From Candidatus Micrarchaeota archaeon (lineage in GTDB: Archaea > Micrarchaeota > Micrarchaeia > Burarchaeales > JAKAKT01): a stretch of DNA of 43,027 nucleotides. Both the position numbers and the translations under genes were made by a program. The DNA is taken from the NCBI GenBank assembly GCA_043814255.1, contig JBDRKD010000060.1, positions 1 to 43,027 on the forward strand, written 5' to 3'. Shown piece by piece: positions 1 to 37,538 of this stretch (positions within the stretch are counted from its first letter, which is position 1; every line of letters starts with the position of its first letter). Below the pieces are notes generated by a model. That model saw nothing but the letters and a program-made list of their open reading frames with translations, was not told the DNA's origin and ran no database searches.

Positions 1-474
1 GTCTATCCAATGACGCTCATCCTGGACTCCCAGATATACGCATCAGTCTACAAGATACCCAAGACGGAATACCATAGCAACAAGCTGCCGCTTGATGATT
101 TTGATATGGGCATATGGATGGACCTGTTCATGGGCCCGAACTTCGGCAAATGGTGCAAGCACTGGTACGATTGGCTATGGTTCTGCTGGCTGTTTGCAAT
201 AATCGAATGGATAATCAATTTCATAATAGCTATTTTCAAGGCATTCGCGTTTATGCTTGTAGTCATATCTGCGGTGCTGAGGGTAGGCGTAGCGGAAGTC
301 ACGGCAGAGGGATTCGATTATTACGCGCACCTGATACCATGGGCGATGCAACCCATCACAGCGGCGTTCATGTTCCCGGTGCTTAACCTGATAATAGTGG
401 TGACTGCAATAAGGAGCCTTTCAGAGGCAATGGGGGGAGAGTCAAGGATAACTGGCCTTGCACAGTTCATATGA
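1..474 (+). CDS. Polytopic membrane protein, paralog 0 of the tandem family (5' end outside window)
   Basis: The frame is open from nt 1. The C-terminal region aligns with the downstream paralogs: last TM helix PVLNLIIVVTAIRSLSEAM, then tail GGESRITGLAQFI-stop. Confidence 0.6.
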   Translation, partial: VYPMTLILDSQIYASVYKIPKTEYHSNKLPLDDFDMGIWMDLFMGPNFGKWCKHWYDWLWFCWLFAIIEWIINFIIAIFKAFAFMLVVISAVLRVGVAEVTAEGFDYYAHLIPWAMQPITAAFMFPVLNLIIVVTAIRSLSEAMGGESRITGLAQFI

Positions 475-487
475 GGGTGTGTAGATT

Positions 488-1378
488 ATGGCGATGTATG
501 GATGCAGCATGAATTCGGAATTCTTCGATTGGCTGCCAATAATGTCATTCATGATACTCATAGCGTTGCTCGTCATCTCCCTTGTGTACATGCTTTCCCA
601 GGTATTCAGAAGGCCAGAGTGGTCACTCTGGGCCAAGAGCGAGCTGTGGCACACACTCGCATCCATACTCCTTGTTGGAATCATACTTTCATTCATGGGT
701 GTGGCTTGCCTGGTAGCAGAGAACCTTGCCGGCGGGGACCCATTTTATATAGCTGACAGGTACCTGCACCAGATGATATGGGGAAAGATGGTGCCTGCTG
801 TGGACAACCTTTTCGAGCTCTCATTCAGGGCACAGAAATGGTCTGTCTTTACAATAGGAATCCTTAGCTGCAGTTATGGGGTGTGCTTCCAACCATTCGC
901 CGGTTTCGGAACGCTGAGCTATAATTTCGAGACAATGGCCGCACTAGTCACCCCCTTCGCGGCCAGTCTGCTGTTCCAGAAACTGCTCCTGCAGTTCGTA
1001 AAGGAAATAGCATTCACAATAATCTTCCCAATAGGTTTCATCCTTCGCGTGTTCCCACTCACAAGGGATGCGGGGGCATTCCTGATAGCAGCCGCAATAG
1101 CGTTCTACATAGTGTTCCCATTGACATACGTTTTCAACAATCTTCTCATGCTGGAGGTCCTCCAAGACACGATGCTTGTGGACTGGTGCGATACAGGCAT
1201 GGTTGGCTTTGGAGGCGGGATTTCCGGGCTCGGGTATGCCACATGCCAGGCGCTGAACACGATCGGGCAGATCCTGCCGCAGGCAGTGTTCCTCCCAGCT
1301 CTTAACCTGGTGATAACAATATCGTTTATGCAGACAATCGCGAAGGTGCTTTCGCGGGATTATGAGGAAGACCTATGA
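488..1378 (+). CDS. Polytopic membrane protein, paralog 1
   Basis: ATG at 488 with a GAGGGTG SD-like site upstream. Multiple hydrophobic segments. Family motifs: TM1 ...SLVYML, AKSELW, RVFPLTRDAGAFLIAAAIAFYIVFP, LPALNLVITISF. The long C-terminal tail seen in the other paralogs is absent (ends LSRDYEEDL). Confidence 0.75.
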   Translation: MAMYGCSMNSEFFDWLPIMSFMILIALLVISLVYMLSQVFRRPEWSLWAKSELWHTLASILLVGIILSFMGVACLVAENLAGGDPFYIADRYLHQMIWGKMVPAVDNLFELSFRAQKWSVFTIGILSCSYGVCFQPFAGFGTLSYNFETMAALVTPFAASLLFQKLLLQFVKEIAFTIIFPIGFILRVFPLTRDAGAFLIAAAIAFYIVFPLTYVFNNLLMLEVLQDTMLVDWCDTGMVGFGGGISGLGYATCQALNTIGQILPQAVFLPALNLVITISFMQTIAKVLSRDYEEDL

Positions 1379-2682
1379 GACTGAAATTGCTTGCACTGGC
1401 AGTCCTTCTCCTGCTTTTCGCAGGATGCACAATGAGAAGGCCGGCAGCCGGCACATGTCCAGTTGGCACAGCATGGAATGCAGGTTTCAATTGCTGCGTT
1501 GATGGGGCACTCGTGTGCATGCAGAACAGCACTGCGACAACCCTCATGCTTTGGGAAGATTGGCAACAAATGGCATTCCTGGTCGTGTTGATGGGGTTCC
1601 TCCTAATGGGCCTCATGTACATGGTTGCGTATGCATTCGATTTCAAGGAAGTAATGATATTCGTTAAGAACGAGATGATACAGCTCGCCGTCTCAGCATT
1701 CATTCTCGGAAACGTGTTGTTCTTCGTGTTCCTGCTTGATTCGTTAGCTGAAGAGAACAGCGTATACATTCTGGGAATGCATTCCAATGTGACAGACATC
1801 ACTTCTGACTTAATCAAGAATCCGGATGGCTCATGGACCGTCCAGAACACGCAGAACGCAATAAATGTCTCGGAATACAGGCCGGCCGATGGCAGATGGA
1901 ACATAGTGCAAAAGAATCCAGGGGATACCATCGACTGCCCGTCCCCATGCCACATCTATCTCGCTAGAGGATACCTTGGCATGACGTACGAGAGGATAGC
2001 GGTTATGGCGAGGTCAGTCATAAAATCCTATTCGAGTCTGGTATGGATTGACCGCACCCGGGTTGGGGTGTTCATAAACATCATGGGCGTGGTTGCCCAA
2101 ATTGCAGTTACACTGATGCCGTTCACAGGTTTGTCCATAATATACCATTCGCTCGGAACATGTTTTGATTTCATGGCAAAGGCGATGATTGCCCTCAAGT
2201 TCCAGGAATCGATGCTCATGTATATAGAGAGCGGAATATTCCCGCTGTTCTTAATCGTGGGTATAATTCTCCGGTCCGTGTGGTTCCTGCGGAAGCTGGG
2301 AGGGCTCATGATAGCAATCGCAATAGGGCTTTACACAGTGTTGCCTCTTCTCTATGTGCTCTGCTGGTATACTGTGGACAGCAGCACAGTCACACTCCAA
2401 ATAGATTCTGACATGATCCAGAACGGGGATTTCAGCGTCCCGCTCCTCCCATGGCAATCATCAAACCTGGATGCAGGCGCACTCGAGGACTTCCTTTTCA
2501 CGAAGTATAACGCGGACAATACGGTGGATACGATGGGGTTGCTTGACATCACTTCCAGTTTGATGCTGCCCGCTTTCGCAATCCCGCTGTTAAACATATT
2601 CATAACCATAGCGTTCATAAAAACACTGTCTGCTTCAATAGGTGGAGATATGGAGCTTGCAGGATTGACTAGAATCATATGA
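1375..2682 (+). CDS. Polytopic membrane protein, paralog 2, with lipobox signal and an N-terminal Cys motif
   Basis: ATGA overlap with the upstream stop. N-terminus MRLKLLALAVLLLLFAGC (lipobox-like). CPVGTAWNAGFNCCVDGALVC motif. Family motifs GLMYMV, VKNEMI, LRKLGGLMIAIAIGLYTVLP, IPLLNIFITIAF, tail GGDMELAGLTRII-stop. Confidence 0.8.
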   Translation: MRLKLLALAVLLLLFAGCTMRRPAAGTCPVGTAWNAGFNCCVDGALVCMQNSTATTLMLWEDWQQMAFLVVLMGFLLMGLMYMVAYAFDFKEVMIFVKNEMIQLAVSAFILGNVLFFVFLLDSLAEENSVYILGMHSNVTDITSDLIKNPDGSWTVQNTQNAINVSEYRPADGRWNIVQKNPGDTIDCPSPCHIYLARGYLGMTYERIAVMARSVIKSYSSLVWIDRTRVGVFINIMGVVAQIAVTLMPFTGLSIIYHSLGTCFDFMAKAMIALKFQESMLMYIESGIFPLFLIVGIILRSVWFLRKLGGLMIAIAIGLYTVLPLLYVLCWYTVDSSTVTLQIDSDMIQNGDFSVPLLPWQSSNLDAGALEDFLFTKYNADNTVDTMGLLDITSSLMLPAFAIPLLNIFITIAFIKTLSASIGGDMELAGLTRII

Positions 2683-2693
2683 GGTAAAAGCAT

Positions 2694-3809
2694 ATGGCCA
2701 TAGAAACAGCCCTTATGAGAACGGCTCTCGCAATTATGCTTATGCTCAGCACTGCCTCAGCGGCATGCGAAGGGATGACTTATGGCCCACAGGCTTGGGC
2801 GAATAGCTGGCAGCAGGTTGCGTTCATTGCACTATTGATAGGCTTTTTCATCGTGGGAATGATATATGCGATTGGGATGGGCTTCAGCATGCCCAAACTA
2901 GTCGCTTCTGCAAAAAAGGACCTGATGTATCTTTTATTCATAGCAGTGCTTGCCGGTTCACTAGCAGTCATAGATGACATAATGAACAATACATTCCTCC
3001 CTGCATTCGCAACACAGTCACTCATAGATGCGACTGCGACTAGGCAGAGTGTCACATTCTGCAGCTATGGGGGGATGGCAACATGGGGAGACCTCCAGCA
3101 GCACTCAATAGATTATGTCGAATGCCTGAGGGAGAAGAGCACAACATATTTCGAAGCGCTCATGAACATCAACTTCATACTTGGCTTCGTGTCCTCAATC
3201 ACACTGGTCATAACCCCCCTCGAGCTCATAGGGCTCAGCTTCACCCCTGGTGCCGCCCTGAAGCCGATGATAGATACCCTTGGCTACGGGCTTTATATGC
3301 TCGCCATAAACATAGCGCAACTCAAGACGCAGGAGGTCTTCCTTTGCTTCTCCAGATACTATATGTTCAGAATGGTGCTTCCTGTTGGGATAGCGCTAAG
3401 CGCCCTCCCGATTACGCGTTCAGCAGGAGGGACCCTCATAGCCATAGCAATAGGCTTCTACTTCGTCCTCCCGGTAACATACCTCCTTTCCGAGGAGATA
3501 GTCTACGATTACTGCCTTGCCCATGGGGGCTGCAGTTTCAGCTCATCCTCCCTCGCAATAGCAGCGCAGTTCATGGGCAGTGGACGCGATTTGGTGGAAG
3601 ACATGTTCGAGAGTGGCGGAGCCAGCTCTTCAAGGCTTGTGGATACGTTCTCGCTGGACGGGCCGATGGGGCCAATGATATACGTCATAGGGATAGCGTC
3701 AATGCTGCTTCCCATGGTGTCAATGTTGGTGACACTGATGTTCGTTAAAGCATTCTCAAGAATATTCGGGGCAGAGGCTGATTTCTCTGCAATGATAAAA
3801 ATACTGTGA
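2694..3809 (+). CDS. Polytopic membrane protein, paralog 3
   Basis: ATG at 2694, 8 nt after a GAGGT site at 2681-2685. Motifs GMIYAI, AKKDLM, ALPITRSAGGTLIAIAIGFYFVLP, tail GAEADFSAMIKIL-stop. Confidence 0.8.
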   Translation: MAIETALMRTALAIMLMLSTASAACEGMTYGPQAWANSWQQVAFIALLIGFFIVGMIYAIGMGFSMPKLVASAKKDLMYLLFIAVLAGSLAVIDDIMNNTFLPAFATQSLIDATATRQSVTFCSYGGMATWGDLQQHSIDYVECLREKSTTYFEALMNINFILGFVSSITLVITPLELIGLSFTPGAALKPMIDTLGYGLYMLAINIAQLKTQEVFLCFSRYYMFRMVLPVGIALSALPITRSAGGTLIAIAIGFYFVLPVTYLLSEEIVYDYCLAHGGCSFSSSSLAIAAQFMGSGRDLVEDMFESGGASSSRLVDTFSLDGPMGPMIYVIGIASMLLPMVSMLVTLMFVKAFSRIFGAEADFSAMIKIL

Positions 3810-4804
3810 TGAATATGGGAGACATAATAAATGCATGCGCATCGCCTGAAGACTGGCTTGCCAGCTGGCAGCTTCTCAGCGCAATAGGGCTGATAATGTC
3901 CTGGTTCGTTGTATCCCTGATATATATGATAGGGTCGCTCCTAGATAACATTGGCTTGATGGCAAGGGCAAAGGCAGAGGTCTGGGAAATAATCACAACC
4001 ACAATCATACTTGGGTTAGTCATAGCGCTGGTAACCTCAGCATGCACATTCGAGATCGGTTCCATGGGCGCAGCAGCCACATCCGGCAACATGTTCGATG
4101 TTGCAGAGAACTACCTCCTCTGGCTTAGGAACTATACAATCTCCGTGTTCAAGGACCTGATGACAATGAACAGCCTCATATCCGTACTGCTTTCAGTTAT
4201 GGGTGGGTTCCAGATATATGGCATTGGCATCGTGGGCCAGCCGTTTGCAGGGCTGCAACCCATCATGAACCTGATGAACCTGTTCATGAACGGCATCATG
4301 ATATGCCTCATCATTTCAATTGCCCAGATAACTGTCCTGAAGTTCATACAGGCAGGTGCATTCAACATCCTCCTTCCAATTGGGATAGTCTGCCGTTCCT
4401 TCCCATTCACAAGAAGGTTTGGGGGGTCCATGATAGCTCTCGCCATCGGCCTCTTCATAATATACCCGTTCCTACTTGTCATAAATGATGCAATAATGGG
4501 AACGCCAAGCAACAATCCAACTAACGTACCCACAATAAACTATAGCATAATGGATGCCATCACAGGCAACCTCATGAGCCTTGGCTTCGGGCTTATAACC
4601 GGAGGGGTAGGTTTCCTCTATGCAATAGCGGATATACTTACAACATACTTCGTTCAGAAGCCCGTCACCGCCATAGGGCAGGTTGCACTTGCAGCGTTCA
4701 TACTGCCCGCTCTGAACAGCGTCGTGTTCGTTATGGCGGTGCGTGACCTCTCGAGAATACTCGGACAGGAGGTTGACGTGACAAGCATGAGCAGAATGGT
4801 TTAA
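3809..4804 (+). CDS. Polytopic membrane protein, paralog 4
   Basis: The ORF-track start at 3806 is GTG. The first ATG is at 3809 and shares 1 nt with the upstream TGA (TGATG). Motifs SLIYMI, AKAEVW, SFPFTRRFGGSMIALAIGLFIIYP, LPALNSVVFVMAV, tail GQEVDVTSMSRMV-stop. Confidence 0.8.
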   Translation: MNMGDIINACASPEDWLASWQLLSAIGLIMSWFVVSLIYMIGSLLDNIGLMARAKAEVWEIITTTIILGLVIALVTSACTFEIGSMGAAATSGNMFDVAENYLLWLRNYTISVFKDLMTMNSLISVLLSVMGGFQIYGIGIVGQPFAGLQPIMNLMNLFMNGIMICLIISIAQITVLKFIQAGAFNILLPIGIVCRSFPFTRRFGGSMIALAIGLFIIYPFLLVINDAIMGTPSNNPTNVPTINYSIMDAITGNLMSLGFGLITGGVGFLYAIADILTTYFVQKPVTAIGQVALAAFILPALNSVVFVMAVRDLSRILGQEVDVTSMSRMV

Positions 4805-4820
4805 TGAGCAGAATGGTTTA
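4787..4820. repeat. Exact 17-bp tandem duplication (atgagcagaatggttta x2) across the stop codon of paralog 4
   Basis: Read directly: 4787-4803 is identical to 4804-4820. Copy 1 encodes the last residues MSRMV plus the stop. Copy 2 lies in the spacer and runs into the SD of the next gene. Confidence 0.9.
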
Positions 4821-4829
4821 GGTGAACAC

Positions 4830-5864
4830 ATGGTATGGAACACCACTGCAGCGGACATGGCGCAGAGCCTTGGGAACCCGTCATTCAGCTGGGCGGCATT
4901 CGCCCTAATGGCAGTTCTCATGCACTTCCTGATTCTCTCAATCCTCTACATGATATCCAAGGCATTCAGCATACATGACCTGTATAAGTGGACCAGGAGC
5001 GAGCTTGCCCAGGCAGTGGCGTCAGCAGTATTGATTGGCCTGTTGTTCAGTGTCGTTGCCGGAGAATCATTCGGGATCGCATTCCTCCAGAACCAGACTG
5101 AACTCATGGCGGGCAGCATTCTCATGCCCGGGGCAGCAGGAGCAACATCAATAGAGGTGCGCGCAGACCCATTCATAGCGTCATACGCGTTCCTCAGGAA
5201 CATGCTCGAATGCGTTAAGACCAAATACATGGACGAATTCAGGCACAACAGGCTTAGGGAGATGGCGCTCTCGATAATCATAACAATACAGATATTCGGG
5301 ATTAAGATCCCAATAGAGCTCAGCATGATTCTCATACCCATATACCAGAAGATGGTACTGTCGCATTATATGGCAAACAACTACACTTGGCTCGCGATCG
5401 CACTGTACTTCCAGATTCATTTCCTGAAGTGGGTGGAGACAGCGATGTTCACAGTCTATCTCCCGTTGGGCATAATCCTCCGCATATTCCCATGGACAAG
5501 GGGCGCAGGCGGTCTGCTCATAGCATTGGCAATAGGGCTTTACCTTGTCTACCCCCTGATGTTCATTATAATCATTGCCAGTTCCGGCTCTGCTCCGGAA
5601 GGGTGCCAAGCAGTGCCAATAACAGTGCAGAGGAACCTGTGTACGACGGATCCGTCATCGTTTGTGGACCTGATAGAAGCAGCAAAGGCAGAGTCATCGC
5701 TGCGCACAGGAAGCCTCGGAGGACCTGCATCTTCGATGATAATATTCGGGTTCTTCTATCCGTTCACCATACTGGTGGTGGTCTTTGCGTTCGTTCGTTC
5801 TCTTGCCCCATTCCTCGGTGCGGACATAGCTGAGATGGGCAGAGGTCTATTCAGGATGATTTGA
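4830..5864 (+). CDS. Polytopic membrane protein, paralog 5
   Basis: ATG at 4830 with AGGTGA at 4819-4824. Motifs SILYMI, TRSELA, IFPWTRGAGGLLIALAIGLYLVYP, tail GADIAEMGRGLFRMI-stop. Confidence 0.8.
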   Translation: MVWNTTAADMAQSLGNPSFSWAAFALMAVLMHFLILSILYMISKAFSIHDLYKWTRSELAQAVASAVLIGLLFSVVAGESFGIAFLQNQTELMAGSILMPGAAGATSIEVRADPFIASYAFLRNMLECVKTKYMDEFRHNRLREMALSIIITIQIFGIKIPIELSMILIPIYQKMVLSHYMANNYTWLAIALYFQIHFLKWVETAMFTVYLPLGIILRIFPWTRGAGGLLIALAIGLYLVYPLMFIIIIASSGSAPEGCQAVPITVQRNLCTTDPSSFVDLIEAAKAESSLRTGSLGGPASSMIIFGFFYPFTILVVVFAFVRSLAPFLGADIAEMGRGLFRMI

Positions 5865-6619
5865 TGGACGAGAACAATCTCATTGTGAGGAACAAGCGCG
5901 TGGTTGTGCAGATGGTCCTAGCGGCCATAATGATTCTCACTGGAGTTATATTACTTCAGATGAGCCAAAGAGCGCCAGAGTTTACTGGGCAGGATTTTAC
6001 TACAATTGGGAACACTTCGGAGAACACAAGCGTTTTCAGGCAACCCGAGTTTACAGAGGTAGGGAACTGCACGCCGCTTTTCAATTCATCACGGAGGATG
6101 TCATATGCATATGATATCTCCTCACCATCCCCGGAAGGCACGATAAGCATGCGGATATCATATGATTTCATAGGCCAGGAATCAGTTGATGGGCGTCTTA
6201 TTGACATTATAGAGATAACAGCCAACGGTTCGCATAAGGGCCTCACAATGGACCCCGTGTGGAGGATGTGGCTCGATTCCGAAACAGGCCAATGCATCGA
6301 AGCAGTCCTTAATATGGGGGGGGGTTCCATCTCACCATCCGACGTTCCTGGGGGAAGCAAGTACATGCTCCCGATGGACTGCAAGGAGGCGCAGTTTGGC
6401 ATGCCAGTTGTCGTGTGCGAGGAACAGATGGAGGGCCTCTCACCAGTCGCAACCGAAACAGTTAAAGTACCTGCCGGTGAATTCCAAACAGAGAGGTATG
6501 AAACACCGAATGATGAAACGATGTGGATTGCATACGGGATGCCAATCCCAGTCAAGTTCATGTTCAAATCAATGGGAGATTATGCGGTTTCCGAATTGAT
6601 ATATTACGAGGAGAAATGA
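5864..6619 (+). CDS. N-terminally TM-anchored protein with a ~210-aa extracytoplasmic domain, unknown function
   Basis: The track start at 5861 is TTG. ATG at 5864 overlaps the upstream TGA (TGATG). Single hydrophobic helix VVVQMVLAAIMILTGVILLQM, then a soluble domain with sequons (NTS, NCT, NSS, NGS). Contains a G9 homopolymer at 6316-6324. Confidence 0.75.
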   Translation: MDENNLIVRNKRVVVQMVLAAIMILTGVILLQMSQRAPEFTGQDFTTIGNTSENTSVFRQPEFTEVGNCTPLFNSSRRMSYAYDISSPSPEGTISMRISYDFIGQESVDGRLIDIIEITANGSHKGLTMDPVWRMWLDSETGQCIEAVLNMGGGSISPSDVPGGSKYMLPMDCKEAQFGMPVVVCEEQMEGLSPVATETVKVPAGEFQTERYETPNDETMWIAYGMPIPVKFMFKSMGDYAVSELIYYEEK

Positions 6620-9600
6620 TGAAAAACACCATACCATTGTTGTTCGCGTTCCTGCTCCTGGCAGGCTGCTTCAACATGACTCCGCGCACAGACACCCCTG
6701 ATGAGGTTATCGTCACCATCACATCCACAAAGAACTGCACTGATGCGAATTGCACTTGCCTGGTGGAAGAGAGGAGGGGGAGGTACCAATGGTGGACATG
6801 CGAGGTAGGCTATGGTGTCGGCGGGGCATTCGCAGAGGCCGGAATATACAACAGCACGCAGGGAGACTACTGCGAGGACATCAGGGTTGGCGGTCTTCCA
6901 TCACGGGTATGCCTTTCATACGTGACAGTTGACCCCTGGTACTGGGTGAAGGCGGATTGCACCTGGACGTGCGGGGACAAGTGGTTTGCATCATGCGCCC
7001 CACCATTTGGGGGATGGCATTCTGGGCAATGTGAGCTTAAATGCATTCAATATTGCGGGTGGCCAACTCCATTCGGCTGCGCTGGCAGATGCCATTGCCA
7101 CGGAATTAAAGAGAGTAGGGCGCAGCCATGCCCTCTAATTACAACAGACTTTGACTGCACATGTCTCCGTTACACCGGTAGCGTAGGGGAAGTCCCATGC
7201 ATGGGGACAGGTCCTGCCGGAGTTGGCTGTGAAGTCATAGGCCCGGCGCTCTATATCGATATATTTGGCACTACCGTTCCATTCTGTTGCCGTCTTAACT
7301 GCACAGACATCGTTCCGGCCAGCTACATGTGCCACAACCAGACCAGCGGCTCAGACATGTTCTTCCAGAAATGCAGCATCCATTATGAGGGTTCATTGCA
7401 GGGGGGCAGGTTCCATGTAGTCAACCCATGCAATGCAACTGCGATGCAGAACATCGTGCAGGACCCGTTGAGGGAGATACCCTTCTTCATGATTGGGCAG
7501 GGAGCTACGCTTGATGCATTCCTGAGGGCAAAAGAATACTGCTCGCCACTCCACAAGTATGAATACACCATCGAGCTCGGGGACACTGTTTTCCACCCAC
7601 CTGGGCTGAACATAACCAACACATCAAGAATCTGCTTTGAGAGCGACAATGTCGCCCATGACCTTTTGCTTGATGGCGGGGCTAATGGGTCATTCAACCT
7701 GACCAAGCATATATGCATAGACGACCTCGTAATCAACACGCCTGCCACAGAACGCCACGTGATGTCCCACAGGTTCACCGGAGAGACATGCGATATCGAC
7801 GTAAGCGCAGACGGCCACCTATATGTGGATGAAGGGAATTTCACCCCGCAGTACCTCATCTATCCTGAGGGCACGTCATTGGAGATACATAATACAGGTT
7901 CAACAAACCGCCAGCTCAACATGTGGGACAATCAATGGGGAGTCGGTGCGGCAGTAACAACGAACATCGCAAGCTATAGTTCTGCGTTCCCAATAGTCAC
8001 TGCAATCGGCCCGAACCTCTTCCAGGATGCTGACAGCAACCACAGTGCGATGGTATTCATCCTGAGTAATGAAAAGAACGTGACTGTCAATGGAGGGGGG
8101 ATGAGCCCAGCAGAGATTGCGATAAGGCAGGGGGAACGAGTCTGCTTCACATGCGCAACAGCAGTTGGGCATATACTTTCTATTTATGAGATGGCAAGCC
8201 CATCAGACCTAATATTCTATGAGAACAAGACGCTTGGCGCCAGCGACATCTGCTGCTGGAGGCCGCCGCCAGGCACATACTTCATCAACGACACTACAAT
8301 AAATGCGAACATAATGCTTTACGTAACTGATAAGAAAACAACGTATGCAGTGCAACTCCAAGATTACCACTTCAACCCGCCCGTGCTAGCACTGCCTAAT
8401 GGAACCGCAGTGTGCTTTGAGAACCCATCCGATTTCGCGCGGGATGTAGAAGTCAGGGAATTAGGCCATACAATCCACATCGCCGCTAAAAACGAGAATT
8501 GCACATACATACCTGCACTTGACCTGCAGCATATAGACGACCCATACACAACATCCAACATGTCCATAGTCATTTACAGCAACCTGTCGACATTCGTGAA
8601 CATCTCAGGCATTGGCGCCCAACCCCAATTCATACAAACAAGCCCAGGCGGAAAACTGTGCTTTGCGAACCTGGACAACATACCTCATGATGTGACAAGC
8701 CTCGGCGCAGTGGATGCGTGTCTCCCATGGGGCGGCAACCCACCTGCTCCAGGAACACTGACAATACTGCCAAATGAGATGGACTGTTTCGATATAGTCG
8801 ACCCGGGAGTGTTCTATTTCTACGAATACTCTGAGCGCATGGACCCGCAAACAGGCAACTTCACAATAACCAACACAACAGTCACGGTCACCGCATCCCA
8901 CCCAGGGAACTACACGTTCTTCATACAGAAGGAACCGCCAGTAAACGGTTCTATTCAACCCCCATCCCATTACCTATTGTCCAATGACACGCTGACTTGG
9001 GCCAATTGTAACTCCACACACCCATGGACAATTGTTGCAAACAAGAACCTGTCAGAGGTTCCGATTCCAATGAATGTTCCGGCTTCCAGCATGACTGATT
9101 GGACAGACTTGATTGTCGGTTCATCAGAACTGACCCTTGTCCACGCTGGAGAGATGAATCTCACTGCAAGGATTTTCGTATCCGACAAGGAGTCTTTCTC
9201 TGAAAAGCTGGACTACCTTTACACAGGGCCCGCGACAAAGAATAACGCAAGCATCCACCTGGCAATTCAGTGGCTGGCCGGGGATATTGGCGATTACACA
9301 CTATGGCTGACGAGATTTATACTCGGGGAAAGGGCAATCACTTCATTCCCAACAGGGCTTAGGAACAGGATTCTTGTCACCCTGTATCCTGAGGACACAT
9401 TTGTCGAAACAATACGCATCCCATCAGGGAGCAACATGACATGGATAAACGTGGATGATGAGGCCCATTGGGTCACCACTTTATGGAATGGCATTTCCAG
9501 TTGGATTCAGCCTTATGGAATGATTGGCGACAGGATAGCTGAATTCGATATGCTCGCAGGCATGTACATACTATCAGAACCATCCTCGGGCATCACATAC

Positions 9601-12600
9601 CCTGTGGAAGCCTATGACCTGAATTGGCAGATAAACGTGAGCATGAGTGCATTTGATCCATCCCCGCTGAACACAAACGTAAGCAAGATGGTGTGCTTCA
9701 ATAACCACGGGGCAGTTCCCAAGATACTGCGCATAACGCCTCCGATTGTAGCGACTTATACTATCGCCGAGGGGGTTCCCTGGAACCCGCCAGATGGCCA
9801 TCACAACGTCTGGGTCCGTGACTCAGGCACCGGCGTGCTGACATGCCCCCACACGTTGTATGTCCCCCCAAATCCCTCCGAATACACCGAAGGCAATATC
9901 ATTGGTTTTGGCTGCGATACAGGGGCATATGAGCTGGTTGAGACCTTGGGCGATACCTGGCGCGGGTCAATACCAGGCGCGGAAGTATCATACCTTGACG
10001 CAATTGGAGTTGGCTGTAATGTCCCGCATACAATCATGACTAATGCAGTTCCTACGGTATTAGCGCCACCTGCTCCAGTCTCCGCACCTGCCCCGGTCAT
10101 CGCAGGAGCAAACTATATCCAACTCTACACCGATAACGGCGGTGTCTCGAGGCAACTGAGACACGCATATTTCGGCAACGCTGTGCAGTTCGGCCTTGTG
10201 CCCCCACCAGTAACGCAGACATTCACGGAAACCAATGTAATTCCAGTGAACACCAGTTCGCCCTTCACATTCACAGATGACCTTCCAACCAATGTCGTTT
10301 CCGCTGTGATGGACATCACATACAACGATTGCGGCGAACTTTACATAAACGGTGCATTTGTGCACGGGAGCTCTGCAGCAGCCCCAACAGCCCCATTCTT
10401 CTGCAACCTAACAGGACCAGCAACGTTCAACGGAATCAACATAATGCCGTTCCTAAACCCAGCGGGGGTAAACACATTTGATTTAATAATGAACAATACG
10501 GTAGGGGGGGACAACGGCTACCAAATCGATATAGCACTGACGTTCTCATCACAACCGATTACAGATGTAGTCCTCCATCCAGGGGACCCAATCTCCTGGG
10601 TGAATCTCGCGGCATGCGGCGGGGACGTCATAGATGTGGAAACATATCTGGAGCCAGTTGAATTGAACATCAGTGCGAAGACAATAGAGTGCTACAATGT
10701 TACAGTCCCTGGGACATATACTGTACAGGACATATCCACCCCGTCAATAGGCTCAATGCAGATAATAGCCGCCGTTGGAGCGGCATTGGGCACGGATTAC
10801 GTCCACCTGATGAGGCTCTCTTCGGATGCGACAGACATCCTGACCACACCCCACAGCACAGTCCGCTGGCACAGTGCAGATGGAGCGGCATACTACCTGC
10901 AGACAATGACCGGGAATGTCACAATTCCAGGGGACTACATCTGGAGCCCGGTAGCATACGGAACGAGCATAATAAACGAGACGCAGACAGGTGCATCCTG
11001 GAGGGTGACTGCCGCGGCAGGGAACTACAGCCAGAGTGTTTTCTACCCAACAAACGTATTCAACCCACCAACAGCTCTCATAAGGCCGGCAACATCAGTA
11101 TGCTTCAGGAACAACGACACAATGGCCCGAACAATCTCGCTGTGCAGATACTTGCCCAACTACACAATCACAGCCCCGCCATGCGATGAATTCTGCAATG
11201 TTTCTTTCCCAACTTATATTAATAATTGGGTGGATCACCCCGCATCCCCTGGCGCAGGATCTACTGATACCTATATTATCAATAACTGGATATACCTAGA
11301 TCCCCAAGATCCTCCGCCTTCCAGCGCAACACTAACTATACTATATGACGATTGCGGAAGCATGCGCATAAACAATGTTCCGGTACCTGCAATGACTGAT
11401 ACTACCTGCCCAACGAATCCACCTGGATGCCCTCCCGCAGGTCCTGTTCCGTGTGGTGATTGGACAGTTGGAGATGTTGCTGCTTACTTGCATGTTGGCT
11501 GGAACAGCATAAGAATAGATGTACTTGATTCATATGGTGCGGACATTGGTTACATAATGGACATCAATGCTCCGCGCAACTACCCGACATGGTCCAGGGC
11601 ATTCGCTACTGGGGAGACCTGGTGCATGGACCCGTCCACATTGCCTGATTACGATCATTCAGTCTGCCCGGACTACAACGGTCCGCCCGCACCGCCTGTG
11701 GCCATATTCAACTTCTCGGACAACGAGACTGCTGACAAGCTGTTGGTCAATCTCACAAACATCTGCGATGGCTCAGAGGTCAAGAGGATATCCGAGAAGC
11801 TCAACAGGTTCGATGATGATATATTCCAGATGCCTGAATTCAACATCTACCCATCATACAACGAGCACGGTCCCTGCTGGCCATCCATAGTGACTTCAGA
11901 AGTGGACCAGACAAATCCGGCATGCATCTGCGCCCAGCTTGAGACAATAACAAGGGAATGCGAGAACTGCACAACTGCACTTGCAGTTGTTTACCCTGAC
12001 CAGAGGGAGCCGTATGTAAACAGCGTCTTCGGCATGTGCGCAGACGATGCAGACATCGCCGCACTGTTCATCGATGCAAACCACCTAATCACAACCCAGC
12101 TCCCGGGTATATGTGATATAAACTGCAACTGCAACTTCACAATGTTCTGGGACAACATAGCTGATTTCAGCAGCTACATACTATACAACTATGGCAAGCC
12201 ATCCACAATCCTTGCTTTCAAGATGGAGGAAAATCCTGCCGCCTGCTGGGACAATGAGACAATAGGGCGGTTGTTCGAGGAGTTCTATCAAGTTCCAGTC
12301 ACGCAACTGGCAGGAAAGGGGCTATTCGGTCTCTCATATGCGTGCTTTGATGATAGGACACTTGCAGGCGATTGTTTCATCCACCTCCCGCCAAACCCAT
12401 CCCCCGCTGGAAAGGCGCTCACAACCGGCGCAAGCAGGGTGCAGCCAGAATTCGATGCATGGTATGGGAAATGTGGGGCGTATTACTATAACTCAGAAGG
12501 GCTTACGATGACGACATTCTCCGGGAACGATACAAACACCACAGTATGCGACAGCTCTCGCATCATGGACCTGTATCAGGAGTATAAGTGCTATGCGGAT

Positions 12601-12603
12601 TAG
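6616..12603 (+). CDS. Giant (~1995 aa) secreted or lipid-anchored Cys-rich, sequon-rich surface protein
   Basis: Start moved from the track's 6523 to ATG 6616 (ATGA overlap with the upstream stop, GAGGAG at 6608-6613). This gives MMKNTIPLLFAFLLLAGC, a lipobox-type signal. It has a Cys-dense N-terminal region, dozens of N-x-S/T sequons, a degenerate repeated strand motif and two YDDCG-type modules. The uninterrupted ~6-kb frame is itself strong coding evidence. Confidence 0.9.
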   Translation: MMKNTIPLLFAFLLLAGCFNMTPRTDTPDEVIVTITSTKNCTDANCTCLVEERRGRYQWWTCEVGYGVGGAFAEAGIYNSTQGDYCEDIRVGGLPSRVCLSYVTVDPWYWVKADCTWTCGDKWFASCAPPFGGWHSGQCELKCIQYCGWPTPFGCAGRCHCHGIKESRAQPCPLITTDFDCTCLRYTGSVGEVPCMGTGPAGVGCEVIGPALYIDIFGTTVPFCCRLNCTDIVPASYMCHNQTSGSDMFFQKCSIHYEGSLQGGRFHVVNPCNATAMQNIVQDPLREIPFFMIGQGATLDAFLRAKEYCSPLHKYEYTIELGDTVFHPPGLNITNTSRICFESDNVAHDLLLDGGANGSFNLTKHICIDDLVINTPATERHVMSHRFTGETCDIDVSADGHLYVDEGNFTPQYLIYPEGTSLEIHNTGSTNRQLNMWDNQWGVGAAVTTNIASYSSAFPIVTAIGPNLFQDADSNHSAMVFILSNEKNVTVNGGGMSPAEIAIRQGERVCFTCATAVGHILSIYEMASPSDLIFYENKTLGASDICCWRPPPGTYFINDTTINANIMLYVTDKKTTYAVQLQDYHFNPPVLALPNGTAVCFENPSDFARDVEVRELGHTIHIAAKNENCTYIPALDLQHIDDPYTTSNMSIVIYSNLSTFVNISGIGAQPQFIQTSPGGKLCFANLDNIPHDVTSLGAVDACLPWGGNPPAPGTLTILPNEMDCFDIVDPGVFYFYEYSERMDPQTGNFTITNTTVTVTASHPGNYTFFIQKEPPVNGSIQPPSHYLLSNDTLTWANCNSTHPWTIVANKNLSEVPIPMNVPASSMTDWTDLIVGSSELTLVHAGEMNLTARIFVSDKESFSEKLDYLYTGPATKNNASIHLAIQWLAGDIGDYTLWLTRFILGERAITSFPTGLRNRILVTLYPEDTFVETIRIPSGSNMTWINVDDEAHWVTTLWNGISSWIQPYGMIGDRIAEFDMLAGMYILSEPSSGITYPVEAYDLNWQINVSMSAFDPSPLNTNVSKMVCFNNHGAVPKILRITPPIVATYTIAEGVPWNPPDGHHNVWVRDSGTGVLTCPHTLYVPPNPSEYTEGNIIGFGCDTGAYELVETLGDTWRGSIPGAEVSYLDAIGVGCNVPHTIMTNAVPTVLAPPAPVSAPAPVIAGANYIQLYTDNGGVSRQLRHAYFGNAVQFGLVPPPVTQTFTETNVIPVNTSSPFTFTDDLPTNVVSAVMDITYNDCGELYINGAFVHGSSAAAPTAPFFCNLTGPATFNGINIMPFLNPAGVNTFDLIMNNTVGGDNGYQIDIALTFSSQPITDVVLHPGDPISWVNLAACGGDVIDVETYLEPVELNISAKTIECYNVTVPGTYTVQDISTPSIGSMQIIAAVGAALGTDYVHLMRLSSDATDILTTPHSTVRWHSADGAAYYLQTMTGNVTIPGDYIWSPVAYGTSIINETQTGASWRVTAAAGNYSQSVFYPTNVFNPPTALIRPATSVCFRNNDTMARTISLCRYLPNYTITAPPCDEFCNVSFPTYINNWVDHPASPGAGSTDTYIINNWIYLDPQDPPPSSATLTILYDDCGSMRINNVPVPAMTDTTCPTNPPGCPPAGPVPCGDWTVGDVAAYLHVGWNSIRIDVLDSYGADIGYIMDINAPRNYPTWSRAFATGETWCMDPSTLPDYDHSVCPDYNGPPAPPVAIFNFSDNETADKLLVNLTNICDGSEVKRISEKLNRFDDDIFQMPEFNIYPSYNEHGPCWPSIVTSEVDQTNPACICAQLETITRECENCTTALAVVYPDQREPYVNSVFGMCADDADIAALFIDANHLITTQLPGICDINCNCNFTMFWDNIADFSSYILYNYGKPSTILAFKMEENPAACWDNETIGRLFEEFYQVPVTQLAGKGLFGLSYACFDDRTLAGDCFIHLPPNPSPAGKALTTGASRVQPEFDAWYGKCGAYYYNSEGLTMTTFSGNDTNTTVCDSSRIMDLYQEYKCYAD

Positions 12604-12623: not shown

Positions 12624-14984
12624 ATGGCAATGCTCAGTGGCGATGATTGGAAGAGCAATCTTGCTCTTATTGTAGGCGGGGCCATATTGCTTTCGCTCCT
12701 GGCGTACGTATGCACCCACAGCTGCCCTGCTGGTTCAACATGGGACTTCAATAAATCATGCTGCGTTGATGCGTTCGGCAACTGCATAACGAAATGTTTC
12801 CCAGATGTTCTTGATGCGGCTTGTGACGCAAAGTGCCCATGCCACCCTGTTGGAAACCCATGTTCATGCGGATGCGGAAACCTGGTCTGCGAGCCGGGCA
12901 TTGGGGAGGATTGCAACACGTGCCCAGGGGATTGCGGCGTATGCCCCCCTCCGGTTGTTATAACTCCATGTACCCACAACGGCATGCCCTGCGTTGCAAG
13001 TGGAGAATGTTGTTCAAGTAACTGCAACCCACCTGGTTCCGTATGCTGCCCAGGAGGAACACAATGGAGCGGTGCCCTCTCATGCTGTGCAGATCTCATC
13101 AGCGGGATATGCAACTGCTATGGGAATGGCGTTATCTGCGGTGCACCGGCAGAATGCTGCACAGGCAACTGCGACAACAGCCACTGCTGCCCTGTCGGAA
13201 CGATCTGGAATGCAACTGAGAACTGCTGCCAGAACCCTGCAGGCGTATGCGTCTGCTACGGAAAGGGCTCCAGTTGTGCAGGGGATCCTGATTGCTGCGG
13301 TGCACTCTATTGCAGTAACCTGCACTGCTGCCAAGGTTCTGACTATTGGAATGCCGGCCTCTCATGCTGTGCGGATTTGACAACAAACCTATGCTCATGT
13401 TTGGGAAGGTCCCAGCTATGCACAATGCCCGACGAATGCTGCTCAGGAAACTGCGATTCCGGACACTGCTGCCCAACAGGCACAGTATGGGATTCTGTTG
13501 ATAGCTGCTGCAAGAACGCTGCCGGTTCGTGCGTAGGTATGGGGGACTGGGACTGGTATTGCCTAGGAGGCGACGTTAACCTGAGTGCCCTCCCGCCGCC
13601 AACATGCGGAAGCGGTGCGTGCGACCCTGGCGAGACGTGTGCGAGCTGCCCAGGAGACTGCGGTATCTGTCCTACATGCAACGGAAACGGGGTATGCGAT
13701 GTTGGCGAGAACTGCCTCAACTGCCCAGGGGATTGCAGTGTAACTGTCCCTCCAGCTCCTGATTTCTCCCAAACGGTTTCCGAGCAATACGCAACCTCAG
13801 CAGGCAACAACTCAGCCTATTCATTCATAATAACCGTCCCAGTAGGCACAATCAACACAGCAACAATGGACATACGATATGATGACTGCGGGTCAACATC
13901 AATAAACGGAGTGCCTGCTCACGGGGCATATCCATGCGGCACAAATGCAGTGTGGGTGTATGGGATAGACATAACTCCCAACGTACACACTGGCGTCAAC
14001 GTATTCAACCTCATGGTTCATGATACTATAGGGGGCTTTATAGGGTATGATGCGATAATCACAGTCACATACTCTCCAAACACCGAGTGTTGCGGCGATG
14101 GTGCGTGCACAGGCACCGAGACCTGCGTTACATGTACGGGGGACTGCGGGTCTTGTTGCAACGGGGACGGGTTGTGCACAGGGGGCGAGACATGCCTGAC
14201 ATGCCCTGCAGACTGTGCAAACACATACACCCCCTCTCCAGTCACAAAGAGCCTTGTCGTTGTCTCTGCCCCATCAACCCAATGGGATACCGGAACATTC
14301 CTTGAGAACGTCACAATCCCGCCATACCCAATGAGCACGGCCCAATTCACATCAATCTGGTATGATGATTGCGGTACAGTGGAGATAAACGACTTGCTTG
14401 CACACCAGGAGCCGGACTGCAGTGGTTCAGCAACCCCGACATACACAAACATAGATGTCAGGCCATACACATTCCCCGCGTGGAACATCCTGCGCTTCGA
14501 TGTTCAGGACACCCGCACAGGAGGCGCCATAGGCTATAATGTTGATTTCGAAGCGACATTCGCCCCTGTCAGCACTTGCTGCGGAGATGGGATTTGCGAG
14601 GGGCCGGAGACGTGCACCAACTGCCCTGCAGACTGCACAGCACCACCAATAGACATCTCCCAGACATTGGCGTTCTCTGAGGCCAGTGCTATGGGGACCA
14701 TAAGAACATACACAGAAGTACTTACACTATCAAACAACCGCATAAGCACCGCCACAATGGATGTCTGGTATGATGACTGCGGCCAGACGAAATTGAATGG
14801 TTTCATCGTCCACGACAACTTCCCGTGCTCGACACTGGCAACGCCGAAGCAATTCGGCATAGATATGGTTCCATTCCTAGTCCCGGGAAACAATGTTTTC
14901 GAGTTCTGGACAAACGATTCACACGGAGGGGGGAACATCGGCTATGATGTAGATGTAGTAGTAAACTACGCTCCGTGCACATAA
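12624..14984 (+). CDS. Modular Cys-rich surface protein (786 aa): TM/signal anchor, CGxGxC motifs, 4 knottin-like repeats, 3 YDDCG modules
   Basis: ATG at 12624 preceded by AGGTGA at 12614-12619 (the track start 12588 overlaps the upstream gene). Hydrophobic anchor LALIVGGAILLSLLAYV. Internal repeats are described under findings. Confidence 0.88.
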   Translation: MAMLSGDDWKSNLALIVGGAILLSLLAYVCTHSCPAGSTWDFNKSCCVDAFGNCITKCFPDVLDAACDAKCPCHPVGNPCSCGCGNLVCEPGIGEDCNTCPGDCGVCPPPVVITPCTHNGMPCVASGECCSSNCNPPGSVCCPGGTQWSGALSCCADLISGICNCYGNGVICGAPAECCTGNCDNSHCCPVGTIWNATENCCQNPAGVCVCYGKGSSCAGDPDCCGALYCSNLHCCQGSDYWNAGLSCCADLTTNLCSCLGRSQLCTMPDECCSGNCDSGHCCPTGTVWDSVDSCCKNAAGSCVGMGDWDWYCLGGDVNLSALPPPTCGSGACDPGETCASCPGDCGICPTCNGNGVCDVGENCLNCPGDCSVTVPPAPDFSQTVSEQYATSAGNNSAYSFIITVPVGTINTATMDIRYDDCGSTSINGVPAHGAYPCGTNAVWVYGIDITPNVHTGVNVFNLMVHDTIGGFIGYDAIITVTYSPNTECCGDGACTGTETCVTCTGDCGSCCNGDGLCTGGETCLTCPADCANTYTPSPVTKSLVVVSAPSTQWDTGTFLENVTIPPYPMSTAQFTSIWYDDCGTVEINDLLAHQEPDCSGSATPTYTNIDVRPYTFPAWNILRFDVQDTRTGGAIGYNVDFEATFAPVSTCCGDGICEGPETCTNCPADCTAPPIDISQTLAFSEASAMGTIRTYTEVLTLSNNRISTATMDVWYDDCGQTKLNGFIVHDNFPCSTLATPKQFGIDMVPFLVPGNNVFEFWTNDSHGGGNIGYDVDVVVNYAPCT

Positions 14985-23670: not shown

Positions 23671-25839
23671 ATGTACAGGTTCTTCGTCCAGGGCGTTGTT
23701 CAGGGGGTGGGGTTCAGGCCATACATCTACAGGAAGGCCAAGGAATACTCTCTAGTTGGAACAGTGAAGAATATAGGCAGCGGCGTGGAGATTATAATCA
23801 ACGATAAGGACTTCATGAAGAAACTGACTGACCTGCCACCGCTTGCGAAGATAACCGACCACACGGATGAGGAGATTGAAACCAAGGAATACACCGATTT
23901 CTCAATTCTCAAGAGCACGGAGTCTGAAGGCGAAACAATATTGCCACAAGACATCTTCACGTGCAAGGACTGCCTCAGGGAACTTAAGGATAGGGACAAC
24001 AGGAGAAGCAACTACTATTTCATCACATGCACGAACTGCGGCCCGAGGTTCTCCATGATAATAGATTACCCTTATGACAGGCCCCTAACTTCAATGCGGC
24101 ATTTCGAGATGTGCGATGAATGCAGGAAAGAATATGCAAATCCGTTGGATAGGAGGTACCACGCTCAGACAATAGCATGCAAGGACTGCGGCCCGAAACT
24201 GCTGCTGAAACAAGGAAGCAAAGCAATACACCTGAATTCAGACTTAGAGACGATAAAAAGGGCAGCAGAGCTCATAAAATCAGGGGAGATTCTCTCCATA
24301 AAAGGAGTTGGCGGGTTTCACCTATGTTCCCTAACAGATGATTCGGCTGTTGAAAAAGTAAGGAAACTGTTAAACAGGAGCCACAAGCCCTTCGCAGTGA
24401 TGGTGAAAGACTTAGGAAAGGCAAAAGAAATCGCCAGCATTTCAGAGAAAGAAGCAGGGTTATTGCAATCCCCCGAGCGGCCGATAATGGTATTGAGGAA
24501 GAAGGACAGGGAACAGTTTTCTGGCATCTCTGAGTTGGATTCAATAGGCATAATGCTACCATACACGGCGCTCCATTACCTCATGTTCGATTTTATCGAA
24601 GCCCCTCTGCTCATGACATCATGCAACATACCTGGAGAACCAGTCGCAGTAAAAGAGAAGATTGGAAAATACTTCCTCACCCACGAACGGGAGATAATCA
24701 ACAGGTGCGATGACTCAGTTCTGAAGATAATTGCAGGCAGGGCATTCTTCCTAAGAAGATCAAGGGGATACACGCCACTCCCAGTAAAACTTCCAATAAG
24801 CGTCAGCGAGACGATTGCGCTTGGGGCAGAGCTCAACAATGTCATAGCTGTCTCAAAGAGGAATAACTGCTTCCTCTCACAATACCTGGGCAACACCTCA
24901 AAACTCGCGACAGCAGAATTTCTCAAGGAAACAGCCGATACCTTCATCCGTTTAACAAGGCTCAAACCAAGAATCATCGCATGCGACATGCACCCATCCT
25001 ATTTCTCAACATCTCTTGCAAGGGAACTGGCAGATAAGCACAACGCATCCCTAATTCAGGTACAGCACCACAAAGCCCATATCGCAAGCGTTGCTGCTGA
25101 GCACGAACTCTCAGATTATGTTGGGATCGCAATGGATGGGTTAGGGTTTGGGGAGGATGGGAACATATGGGGAGGGGAAGTCTTCGATGTTCGCAATGGT
25201 ACAGACTTCAGAAGGATTGGGCACCTTGAGGAACAACCCCAGCTTGGCGGAGATTCCGCCACAATCTACCCAAAGAAGATGCTGTTCGGGTTATTGGCAA
25301 GATTTCTCGATGAAACTGAACTGCTAAAACTTGCTTTTTACGATGAGAAGGAGACCAAACTCTATCTAAACCTCTTGGATGCCGGGTTCAATGTCCCGCA
25401 GACAACAAGCGCTGGAAGGATTCTCGATGCCGCATCATCACTATTGGGTTTGTGTGATAAGAGGACATATGATGGCAGGCCAGCCATGCTTCTCGAGAGC
25501 ATGGCAACAGAGCCGTTGGAATTCGAGCCGGTCTATGGTGAAGAAGACGGGAGAAGGATACTCATGACAACCCCACTTTTCAAACACCTCTTAGAAAATC
25601 TGGAAGAGGGAAAGGGAAGGTTGGCGGCAACAGTGCAAACATATCTTGCCAAAGGGCTATTCGATATTGCGAGAAGGGAGAAGAAACAGGTTGTCCTCTC
25701 TGGCGGGGTTGCATACAACAGGATGATTTCGGATATTATGCTGAAGAATGGGGTGCTGATGAACAGGGACATCCCATCCGGCGATGGCGGGATATGCTTT
25801 GGCCAGTCCTATCTAGCAAACCTAATTACAGAGAGCTAA
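23671..25839 (+). CDS. hypF: [NiFe]-hydrogenase maturation carbamoyltransferase HypF
   Basis: Acylphosphatase-like N-terminus (FVQGVVQGVGFRPYIYRKA). Two CxxC-x18-CxxC zinc fingers (CKDC...CTNC and CDEC...CKDC). YrdC-like and Kae1-like C-terminal regions. 722 aa. Confidence 0.92.
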   Translation: MYRFFVQGVVQGVGFRPYIYRKAKEYSLVGTVKNIGSGVEIIINDKDFMKKLTDLPPLAKITDHTDEEIETKEYTDFSILKSTESEGETILPQDIFTCKDCLRELKDRDNRRSNYYFITCTNCGPRFSMIIDYPYDRPLTSMRHFEMCDECRKEYANPLDRRYHAQTIACKDCGPKLLLKQGSKAIHLNSDLETIKRAAELIKSGEILSIKGVGGFHLCSLTDDSAVEKVRKLLNRSHKPFAVMVKDLGKAKEIASISEKEAGLLQSPERPIMVLRKKDREQFSGISELDSIGIMLPYTALHYLMFDFIEAPLLMTSCNIPGEPVAVKEKIGKYFLTHEREIINRCDDSVLKIIAGRAFFLRRSRGYTPLPVKLPISVSETIALGAELNNVIAVSKRNNCFLSQYLGNTSKLATAEFLKETADTFIRLTRLKPRIIACDMHPSYFSTSLARELADKHNASLIQVQHHKAHIASVAAEHELSDYVGIAMDGLGFGEDGNIWGGEVFDVRNGTDFRRIGHLEEQPQLGGDSATIYPKKMLFGLLARFLDETELLKLAFYDEKETKLYLNLLDAGFNVPQTTSAGRILDAASSLLGLCDKRTYDGRPAMLLESMATEPLEFEPVYGEEDGRRILMTTPLFKHLLENLEEGKGRLAATVQTYLAKGLFDIARREKKQVVLSGGVAYNRMISDIMLKNGVLMNRDIPSGDGGICFGQSYLANLITES

Positions 25840-26537: not shown

Positions 26538-26538
26538 T

Positions 26539-26889: not shown

Positions 26890-26894
26890 ACTCA

Positions 26895-28912: not shown

Positions 28913-28916
28913 AAAC

Positions 28917-34110: not shown

Positions 34111-34139
34111 GATCCGAGGTCAATTATCCAAAATCTTAA

Positions 34140-34283: not shown

Positions 34284-34296
34284 TCAATCTTTTTAC

Positions 34297-35806: not shown

Positions 35807-35854
35807 AACGGAAGCGGAACCGGGCTAGCGGGCTGCTTTATCTGAAACCGAAAA

Positions 35855-37417: not shown

Positions 37418-37490
37418 TAACCCACCAACAGAATAAGCATATTATTAGAGTGTTTTCTCCTTATAAAGTTTCGCATTATGTGGTATACCT

Positions 37491-37536: not shown

Positions 37537-37538
37537 GT

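Follow-up and report, generated by a model that had tools for sequence, protein, structure and literature searches.

The closest described counterparts of the locus considered here are the systems built around the polytopic membrane proteins VirB6/TrbL, of type IV secretion, and CedA/TedA, of archaea. VirB6 places its N-terminus and a large loop in the periplasm and its C-terminus in the cytoplasm, with five membrane segments in A. tumefaciens (PMC6120205), and VirB6 of R388 has been described as seven long helices (PMC9259494). According to Beltran et al., CedA1 and CedA show the same kind of hairpin relation as VirB2 and VirB6 (PMC9905601). In Rickettsia there are five diverged paralogs of VirB6, whose extensions vary, and the type IV secretion genes lie dispersed in the genome (PMC2653234). 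The locus reported here is a tandem array of diverged membrane protein paralogs at positions 1-5864 of contig JBDRKD010000060.1, a stretch of 43,027 nucleotides (the window) from a Candidatus Micrarchaeota archaeon (GenBank assembly GCA_043814255.1). Micrarchaeota and other DPANN archaea are attached to host cells and depend on their hosts. To our knowledge, no protein that makes the contact between DPANN cells and hosts, or that moves material across it, has been identified.

Neither the array nor its protein family is described in the literature searched, which covered secretion in DPANN archaea and Micrarchaeota, VirB4 and VirB6, the Ced and Ted systems, the cultivation of Micrarchaeota, and cryo-electron tomography. 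The array supplies concrete candidate genes for a Micrarchaeota contact or transfer apparatus. Its six proteins are most likely distinct subunits of one Micrarchaeota-specific membrane complex, and the favoured reading, held at about even odds (a probability near 0.5), is that the array encodes a hetero-hexameric membrane platform resembling VirB6 and CedA, homology to VirB6 being unproven.

Six fixed tandem copies of one membrane protein family

In the window the array consists of six copies, five of them complete, all on the forward strand. Successive genes are separated by 11-25 nucleotides or joined by 4-nucleotide start/stop overlaps; the array is therefore probably co-transcribed and partly translationally coupled. 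The initial annotation had recognized this tightly packed, same-strand run of diverged paralogs and gave the correct length range (296-435 amino acids, aa), but it counted seven full-length copies and proposed an alignment of six complete ones, where there are five complete copies and a C-terminal fragment of 157 aa. The fragment, p1 (1-474), is truncated by the left edge of the window and retains the last outside loop, the last membrane helix and the conserved C-terminal tail (E = 6e-11 with the family hidden Markov model, HMM); its full-length orthologs have 584-1310 aa with a large N-terminal outside domain, as at L001 3568-5535 (655 aa) and L004 3801-5555 (584 aa). The shortest copy, p2 (488-1378, 296 aa), is without the usual C-terminal tail motif and has orthologs of 293-302 aa in loci of the window's own type (type A, below). 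The start of p3 (1375-2682, 435 aa) overlaps the stop of p2 (ATGA), and the protein begins with a lipoprotein-like signal (LLLFAGC) and a Cys-rich N-terminal outside segment. It is followed by p4 (2694-3809, 371 aa), by p5 (3806-4804, 332 aa), whose start overlaps the p4 stop and which is the source of the high-confidence AlphaFold model discussed below, and by p6 (4830-5864, 344 aa), the best-conserved copy, with 71-73% identity to its closest orthologs in metagenome-assembled genomes (MAGs) of Micrarchaeota. The next open reading frame (ORF), 252 codons long at 5861-6619, was considered as a seventh paralog and rejected, having no family HMM match at E<=10 and a BLASTP E of 0.085.

The five complete copies match one another at 21-33% identity across most of their length (BLASTP E = 1e-11 to 4e-24), which bears out homology as opposed to mere hydrophobic composition. 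Among the three signature blocks proposed for the copies, the Arg/Gly block (F-P-x-T-R-x-x-G-G and the residues after it) occurs as quoted in all five, and its arginine and the glycine that follows are invariant or nearly so in 149 homologs. In p5 numbering, R203 and P221 are invariant in those homologs, and W21, E58, L190, G193, R197 and G206 are at least 90% conserved. The motif proposed for the end of the first membrane helix holds in four of the five complete copies and fails in p6, where S-I-L-Y-M-I falls outside the stated residue classes; its downstream part, [AVT]-[KR]-x-[ED]-[LMV], is present in all five. The pattern [IL]-P-x-L-N proposed for the last helix is found in three, with LPMVS in p4 and YPFTI in p6, and only its proline is general.

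All family copies were scanned against Pfam, NCBIfam and PHROG with zero matches, and the family profile found nothing at E<=10 among PDB sequences. The initial annotation had named a known transporter or secretion family among the HMM matches as a refuting outcome, and at the sequence level none was retrieved. The family is nevertheless large: among 1.84 billion proteins, a profile built from 18 members retrieves 3261 representative clusters at E<=1e-3, and 976 of them reach E<=1e-30. A word-based homolog search with the deep profile yielded no further annotated or bridging relatives, and the family is without a curated name. When one genome per species was scanned, the family turned up in Micrarchaeota-type (DPANN) genomes and nowhere else: most of the 57 loci belong to Candidatus Micrarchaeota, Micrarchaeia or Micrarchaeales, and the remaining few to archaeal DPANN-type MAGs, one labelled 'Candidatus ainarchaeum'.

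Copy number was determined by calling ORFs in all fetched loci and searching them with the family HMM. Essentially every locus uncut by a contig or flank end (about 35 uncut Micrarchaeota loci) has exactly six tandem members; the few loci with seven HMM matches are explained by split or overlapping ORFs. Among 35 non-redundant six-copy loci taken together with the window, the best match of the copy at a given position was the copy at the same position elsewhere in 58-93% of comparisons. Position-matched best hits and the constant number six indicate that the copies arose by ancient duplications, before the lineage spread, and that all six have since been kept in order. Individual orthogroups carry their own decorations, such as the large N-terminal outside domain of p1, the lipobox of p3 in the window's locus type, and an insertion of about 370 aa within an outside loop of p3 in another type; copy length varies between 281 and 1761 aa across loci. 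The persistence of six ancient orthogroups in one order argues for a hetero-oligomer, and the pattern points to a complex whose six positions are not equivalent rather than to redundancy. The initial annotation had preferred hetero-oligomeric assembly to redundancy, and the fixed number, fixed order and position-matched orthology agree with it; co-assembly itself we infer from this conservation and from the packing of the genes.

Topology, predicted fold and locus types

The topology of a subunit was deduced from the charge, cysteine and N-glycosylation-sequon counts of 149 homologs and from the helix layout of the p5 model, rather than from a dedicated predictor. The predicted subunit starts outside, crosses the membrane five times, with a large outside loop after helix 2, and ends inside. 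A variable outside segment of 0-117 aa, with cysteines and in some copies a signal peptide, precedes membrane helix 1; a basic inside loop with a fixed length of 22 aa connects it to membrane helix 2; and an acidic outside loop of 78-154 aa, with cysteines and sequons, leads into a long helix that has its N-terminal part outside and then crosses the membrane inward. The LRxFPxTRGAGG loop that follows on the inside has a fixed length of 13 aa, 0.19 Lys+Arg per residue and nearly no acidic residues. Beyond it lie a further membrane helix, a second outside loop of 44-130 aa, the last membrane helix, and an inside tail of 12-22 aa that contains a conserved cytoplasmic helix. Mean pairwise identity within orthogroups is 0.77 for the Arg/Gly loop and 0.67 for the C-terminal tail, as against 0.31 for the N-terminus and 0.36 and 0.27 for the outside loops; the conserved face in this predicted topology is therefore cytoplasmic and the variable face outward. 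Diversification of exposed loops, the other possibility raised when the array was first noticed, is thus also visible within orthogroups, where the outside loops are the least conserved parts (0.27-0.36 identity).

An AlphaFold2 model of p5 from a 149-sequence alignment reached a predicted local distance difference test score (pLDDT) of 89.7 and a predicted template modelling (TM) score of 0.84; the first AlphaFold model, from 18 sequences, had a pLDDT of 71. The p5 model contains seven long helices, two of about 51 residues, a small beta-hairpin and a short C-terminal helix, and each subunit is predicted to have two large variable outside regions made partly of very long helices. Among 350,542 PDB chains searched with Foldseek, TrwI, the VirB6 of R388, ranks first for the p6 model (7o3v_F, E = 0.15) and for the p5 model (8rtd_L, E = 0.24). 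This match is a lead rather than proof, because the TM-scores are just 0.23-0.30. TrwI (PDB 7o3v, 8rtd) and the paralogs are alike in being polytopic proteins of roughly 300-350 aa with seven long helices, and the deduced topology of the family (N-terminus out, about five helices, a large outside region after helix 2, C-terminus in) equals that of VirB6.

The family loci can be sorted into three types. In type A (the window, L001, L004, L010 and L014), the array is accompanied by a bitopic protein of about 240 aa, a Cys- and sequon-rich lipobox protein of 1900-2345 aa, and a Cys-rich anchored protein of about 800 aa. In type B, which comprises many loci, one or two secreted proteins of 1270-1760 aa are encoded downstream. 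Type C, represented by Ca. Fermentimicrarchaeum limneticum and its relatives, has pilin-like genes upstream and an ATPase module downstream; when similarity is summed over p2-p6, no arrays outside type A come closer to the window's type than those of type C. Some Micrarchaeota genomes possess two separate six-copy arrays of different locus types, namely L025 and L031 on one 920-kb contig (LFW-35) and L027 and L037 in one MAG; several paralogs in one of these genomes are 900-1100 aa long.

Type C loci encode two or three proteins of 115-122 aa directly upstream of the array on the same strand and, directly downstream, two membrane proteins of about 274 aa followed by a P-loop ATPase of about 510 aa. 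Each small protein consists of a signal peptide and two hydrophobic helices linked by a basic turn; 17 of the 19 match the Pfam family T4SS_pilin (PF18895, best E = 1.3e-5) and five match TrbC/VirB2 (best E = 1.7e-6). The ATPase matches the NCBIfam models for CedD (1.4e-19), CedB (1.1e-18), VirB4-like CD1110 (3e-15) and TraC/VirB4, as well as the Pfam families DUF87, AAA_10 and TraG P-loop and a VirB4-like PDB chain. Pilins and a VirB4-family ATPase stand beside the array in 7-8 genome loci and 11 metagenome loci, all of this sister type. A reverse scan of metagenomes that started from the ATPase returned 23 loci: wherever the ATPase was at least 72% identical and the upstream flank sufficed, a six-copy array lay about 1.6 kb upstream, and pilin genes lay further upstream in several loci with a longer flank (L079, L081 and L082). 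The link between ATPase and array is real in one clade and is not universal. This Ced-like, type IV secretion context can be seen only in sister loci, and so was beyond the view of a reader of the window. The ATPases of type B loci were considered as VirB4-like and rejected: they are CDC48-like AAA ATPases, and the apparent link was a clustering artefact of an intein in one ATPase. The CedB/VirB4-like ATPase at L033 12597-15740 has 1047 aa instead of about 510, with an intein-like insert directly after the Walker A lysine.

The type C pilins also appear, by profile comparison, to resemble the N-terminal hairpin of the paralogs. The pilin profile aligns with helix 1, loop and helix 2 of the family over 64-69 columns (hhalign E = 2.8e-4 to 6.6e-4, probability 27-41%) with a score of 24-28, and all controls score 10-16. 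Column-shuffled pilin profiles gave 10.8 +/- 1.7 (maximum 15.7) compared with 23.8 for the real profile, the reversed pilin profile gave 10.3, and other helix pairs of the family and unrelated two-helix proteins gave 10-15.

The resemblance to CedA/TedA (PMC9905601) extends to an archaeal, chromosomal setting that looks like domesticated type IV secretion and, in the sister loci, to a polytopic protein with a VirB2-like pilin and a VirB4-like ATPase for neighbours, that ATPase scoring best against the CedD and CedB models; the N-terminal hairpin also appears similar to the cognate pilin, as for CedA and CedA1. CedA and TedA differ in being encoded by single genes and in having about seven predicted membrane helices, and the paralogs have no NCBIfam or Pfam match to Ced proteins. 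In the sister loci only, the array is flanked as VirB6/TrbL is, by VirB2-type pilin genes on one side and a VirB4-family ATPase on the other. A third likeness is to the rvh system of Rickettsiales (PMC2653234, PMC7648143). There, four to five diverged genes of the VirB6 type, with variable and sometimes giant extensions, persist in the reduced genome of an obligate symbiont, and the remaining secretion genes are scattered on the chromosome. This likeness is one of pattern only (several diverged copies, variable extensions, a symbiont lineage) and is independent of homology; rvh is bacterial and belongs to a diderm, its proteins have recognizable TrbL/VirB6 domains, its copies number five rather than six, and the large surface proteins of the Micrarchaeota loci are separate genes, except in loci where paralogs reach 700-1700 aa.

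On the favoured reading, the six proteins would assemble in the cytoplasmic membrane into a hetero-hexameric platform, or one of otherwise fixed stoichiometry, that does the job of VirB6, CedA or TedA: a base that would carry the extracellular components and might let them, or substrates, pass through. An asymmetric socket on the extracellular side would be made up of the long helices and outside loops, and on the cytoplasmic side the conserved Arg/Gly loops, with the C-terminal helices, would offer a surface for docking or gating. In type C loci the socket may serve the VirB2-like pilins, the CedB-like ATPase lying on the cytoplasmic side. In loci of the window's type, the 252-aa protein and the two giant Cys-rich proteins may be held in it or exported through it; these proteins share modules among themselves and with the outside parts of p1 and p3. 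An energizing ATPase for the window's type, if there is one, would be encoded beyond the 43 kb. Six-fold stoichiometry, equivalence to VirB6 and any transport activity, like co-assembly, are what we infer from these features.

Weighing of alternative explanations

Several results weigh against the favoured reading. The family has no sequence or profile similarity to VirB6/TrbL (PF04610), to CedA or to any curated family (Ced proteins being covered through NCBIfam and Pfam models only), and hhalign comparison with ten proteobacterial (MPF_T) VirB6 proteins from plasmids gave E = 0.16-0.21. The structural matches to TrwI are non-significant, at E = 0.15-0.24 with the low TM-scores given above and a root-mean-square deviation of about 13 Å. 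VirB6 of R388 is a homo-pentamer, not an assembly of six different subunits, and no VirB5, VirB8-11 or coupling protein was recognized with the array. All the Pfam matches of the type C pilins are under the curated cut-offs. No pilin or VirB4-like gene is present within 10-43 kb in the window, its type A relatives or type B loci; pilin and ATPase HMMs run against the window at relaxed thresholds returned noise only, and the window has giant surface proteins instead. The Rickettsia precedent means that the lack of a nearby ATPase is not decisive. Finally, ATPases of 59-65% identity at five loci (L090-L094) have neither array nor pilin within 3-10 kb upstream, and the adjacency of ATPase and array in the sister clade could therefore be partly coincidental. 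Those ATPases keep a conserved five-gene module of their own, in which the ATPase gene lies between genes for a two-helix protein (about 270 aa) and a zinc-ribbon membrane protein, followed by genes for proteins of about 250 and 850 aa, the larger again with two helices.

A different explanation, possible though doubtful, is that the six proteins form a hetero-oligomeric platform in the envelope that has nothing to do with type IV secretion. Micrarchaeota would have invented it to anchor, export or organize the giant Cys-rich surface proteins encoded beside it, as adhesins or host-contact parts, and the pilin and ATPase genes of one clade would be a secondary neighbourhood. Most loci (types A and B) do pair the array with giant secreted or lipobox proteins and not with pilins and an ATPase, 30 loci have a divergent gene for a bitopic protein of 1000-1500 aa upstream, and a small Cys-rich outside module is common to p1, p3 and the protein encoded at 12624-14984; the absence of a detectable sequence relation to VirB6 and the occurrence of the ATPase module on its own elsewhere point the same way. 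An unrelated platform would not be expected to have the topology of VirB6, to find TrwI twice as its top structural match, to share with the pilins a hairpin similarity that exceeds the controls, or to have pilin genes abutting it in the very locus type closest to the window's.

It is very unlikely that the copies are interchangeable versions of one protein, each homo-oligomeric and kept for surface variation or for different hosts or substrates. The outside loops do differ strongly between copies and are their least conserved parts, and some genomes have two whole arrays, as described above for L025/L031 and L027/L037. Interchangeable copies should be gained and lost, yet nearly all uncut loci have six, and orthology tracks position even between deeply diverged loci; moreover, the genes are probably translationally coupled, at least in part, in one block, and each orthogroup has its characteristic size and decorations. 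That the proteins are subunits of a small-molecule or ion transporter, as polytopic proteins with conserved charged residues near membrane helices (E58, R197, R203) might suggest, is scarcely probable at all, given no match to any transporter family above noise in the Pfam and NCBIfam scans, no internal repeat, half of each protein outside the membrane with very long helices, and neighbours that are giant surface proteins or pilins and not solute-binding proteins or metabolic genes.

The array has an unusual architecture, with six fixed, different copies of one membrane protein throughout a lineage, and it adjoins the largest surface proteins of the genome and, in one clade, conjugation-type pilins and an ATPase. 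If the platform is indeed related to VirB6, machines derived from type IV secretion extend to DPANN archaea in an archaeal, heteromeric version with six paralogs, which would give an archaeal parallel to the unexplained multiplication of VirB6 in Rickettsiales and an example from nature of a homo-oligomeric secretion base that became hetero-oligomeric. If it is not, the complex is further from anything known. Either way, candidate genes can be named for the envelope machinery of host-dependent archaea. Cryo-tomography of a Micrarchaeota-related symbiont has shown thin filaments on the cells and, under the S-layer, a 21-nm barrel-like docking platform at the point of entry of host nanotubes (PMC11329633), and the proteins of this platform are unassigned (PMC11329633). 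A pseudo-six-fold ring or lock-washer of the six paralogs might combine with the neighbouring giant Cys-rich lipoproteins and large bitopic protein into a Micrarchaeota host-contact organelle such as the 21-nm platform, a DPANN-specific machine for cell-to-cell transfer derived from a conjugation-type system in which each position is filled by a different gene; this is unlikely, and the link between the array and the docking platform is a speculation with the odds well against it.

Neighbouring genes and the rest of the window

The divergent gene upstream of the array in type A and type B loci specifies a protein that starts with a signal peptide and a Cys-rich ectodomain (about 150 aa), crosses the membrane once and continues for about 1000 poorly conserved residues, conservation being limited to the first 230 aa or so. 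Examples are found at L001 1-1698, L004 1-3680 and L005 1888-5676 (minus strand); in the window, the counterpart would fall just left of position 1. The possibility that this protein is a hidden ATPase was examined and dismissed, as it has no Walker A motif and no Pfam or PDB match.

Downstream of the array, all genes of the co-oriented block are on the forward strand. The accessory gene at 5861-6619, whose start overlaps the p6 stop, encodes a 252-aa protein in which a single membrane helix at the N-terminus precedes an outside domain of about 215 aa; it has no family match in Pfam, NCBIfam or PHROG and is conserved solely in type A loci. The next gene, at 6616-12603, encodes a giant surface protein of about 1995 aa from a likely ATG start at 6616 that overlaps the previous stop. 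This protein has a lipobox (LLLAGC), 77 cysteines, 51 N-x-S/T sites and repeated cupredoxin-like modules, one of them matched at residues 603-666, and orthologs of 1888-2345 aa occupy the same position in L001, L004, L010 and L014. The block is closed by a gene for a Cys-rich, membrane-anchored surface protein at 12624-14984 (786 aa from the ATG at 12624, with 95 cysteines, or 12%), which has orthologs of 794-970 aa in L001, L004 and L010.

Both surface proteins contain a module of about 110 aa ('DDCG...NG...GY'), present in two copies in the giant protein and in three in the 786-aa protein. It is unmatched by Pfam models and looks like a beta-sandwich adhesion or carbohydrate-binding module. 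A second, Cys-rich outside module ('CPxGxxW...CC') is common to the N-terminal parts of p1 and p3, the 12624-14984 protein and a protein of about 900 aa in loci with pilins and ATPase (jackhmmer E = 1e-9 to 1e-20); its sites are 1375-1560 (the N-terminus of p3) and 12624-12800 in the window, 3559-5535 in L001 and 18803-20239 in L020.

The remainder of the window is consistent with an archaeal chromosome, with genes for an Lhr helicase, hypF, a cobW/hypB-like protein, an AIR-synthase-type (hypE-like) protein and hypD. The last four form a [NiFe]-hydrogenase maturation set at 23671-28939, with hypF on the plus strand and the cobW/hypB-like GTPase, hypE-like and hypD genes on the minus strand, within a small symbiont genome. 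From about 34000 to 43027 the G+C content falls from about 0.50 to 0.40-0.44 and several ORFs have no family match, and this region is possibly an acquired island; a Fic/DOC gene is located inside it at 41159-42058 on the minus strand. Distant from the array, a secreted-type protein of 951 aa with a CARDB domain is encoded at 29807-32662.

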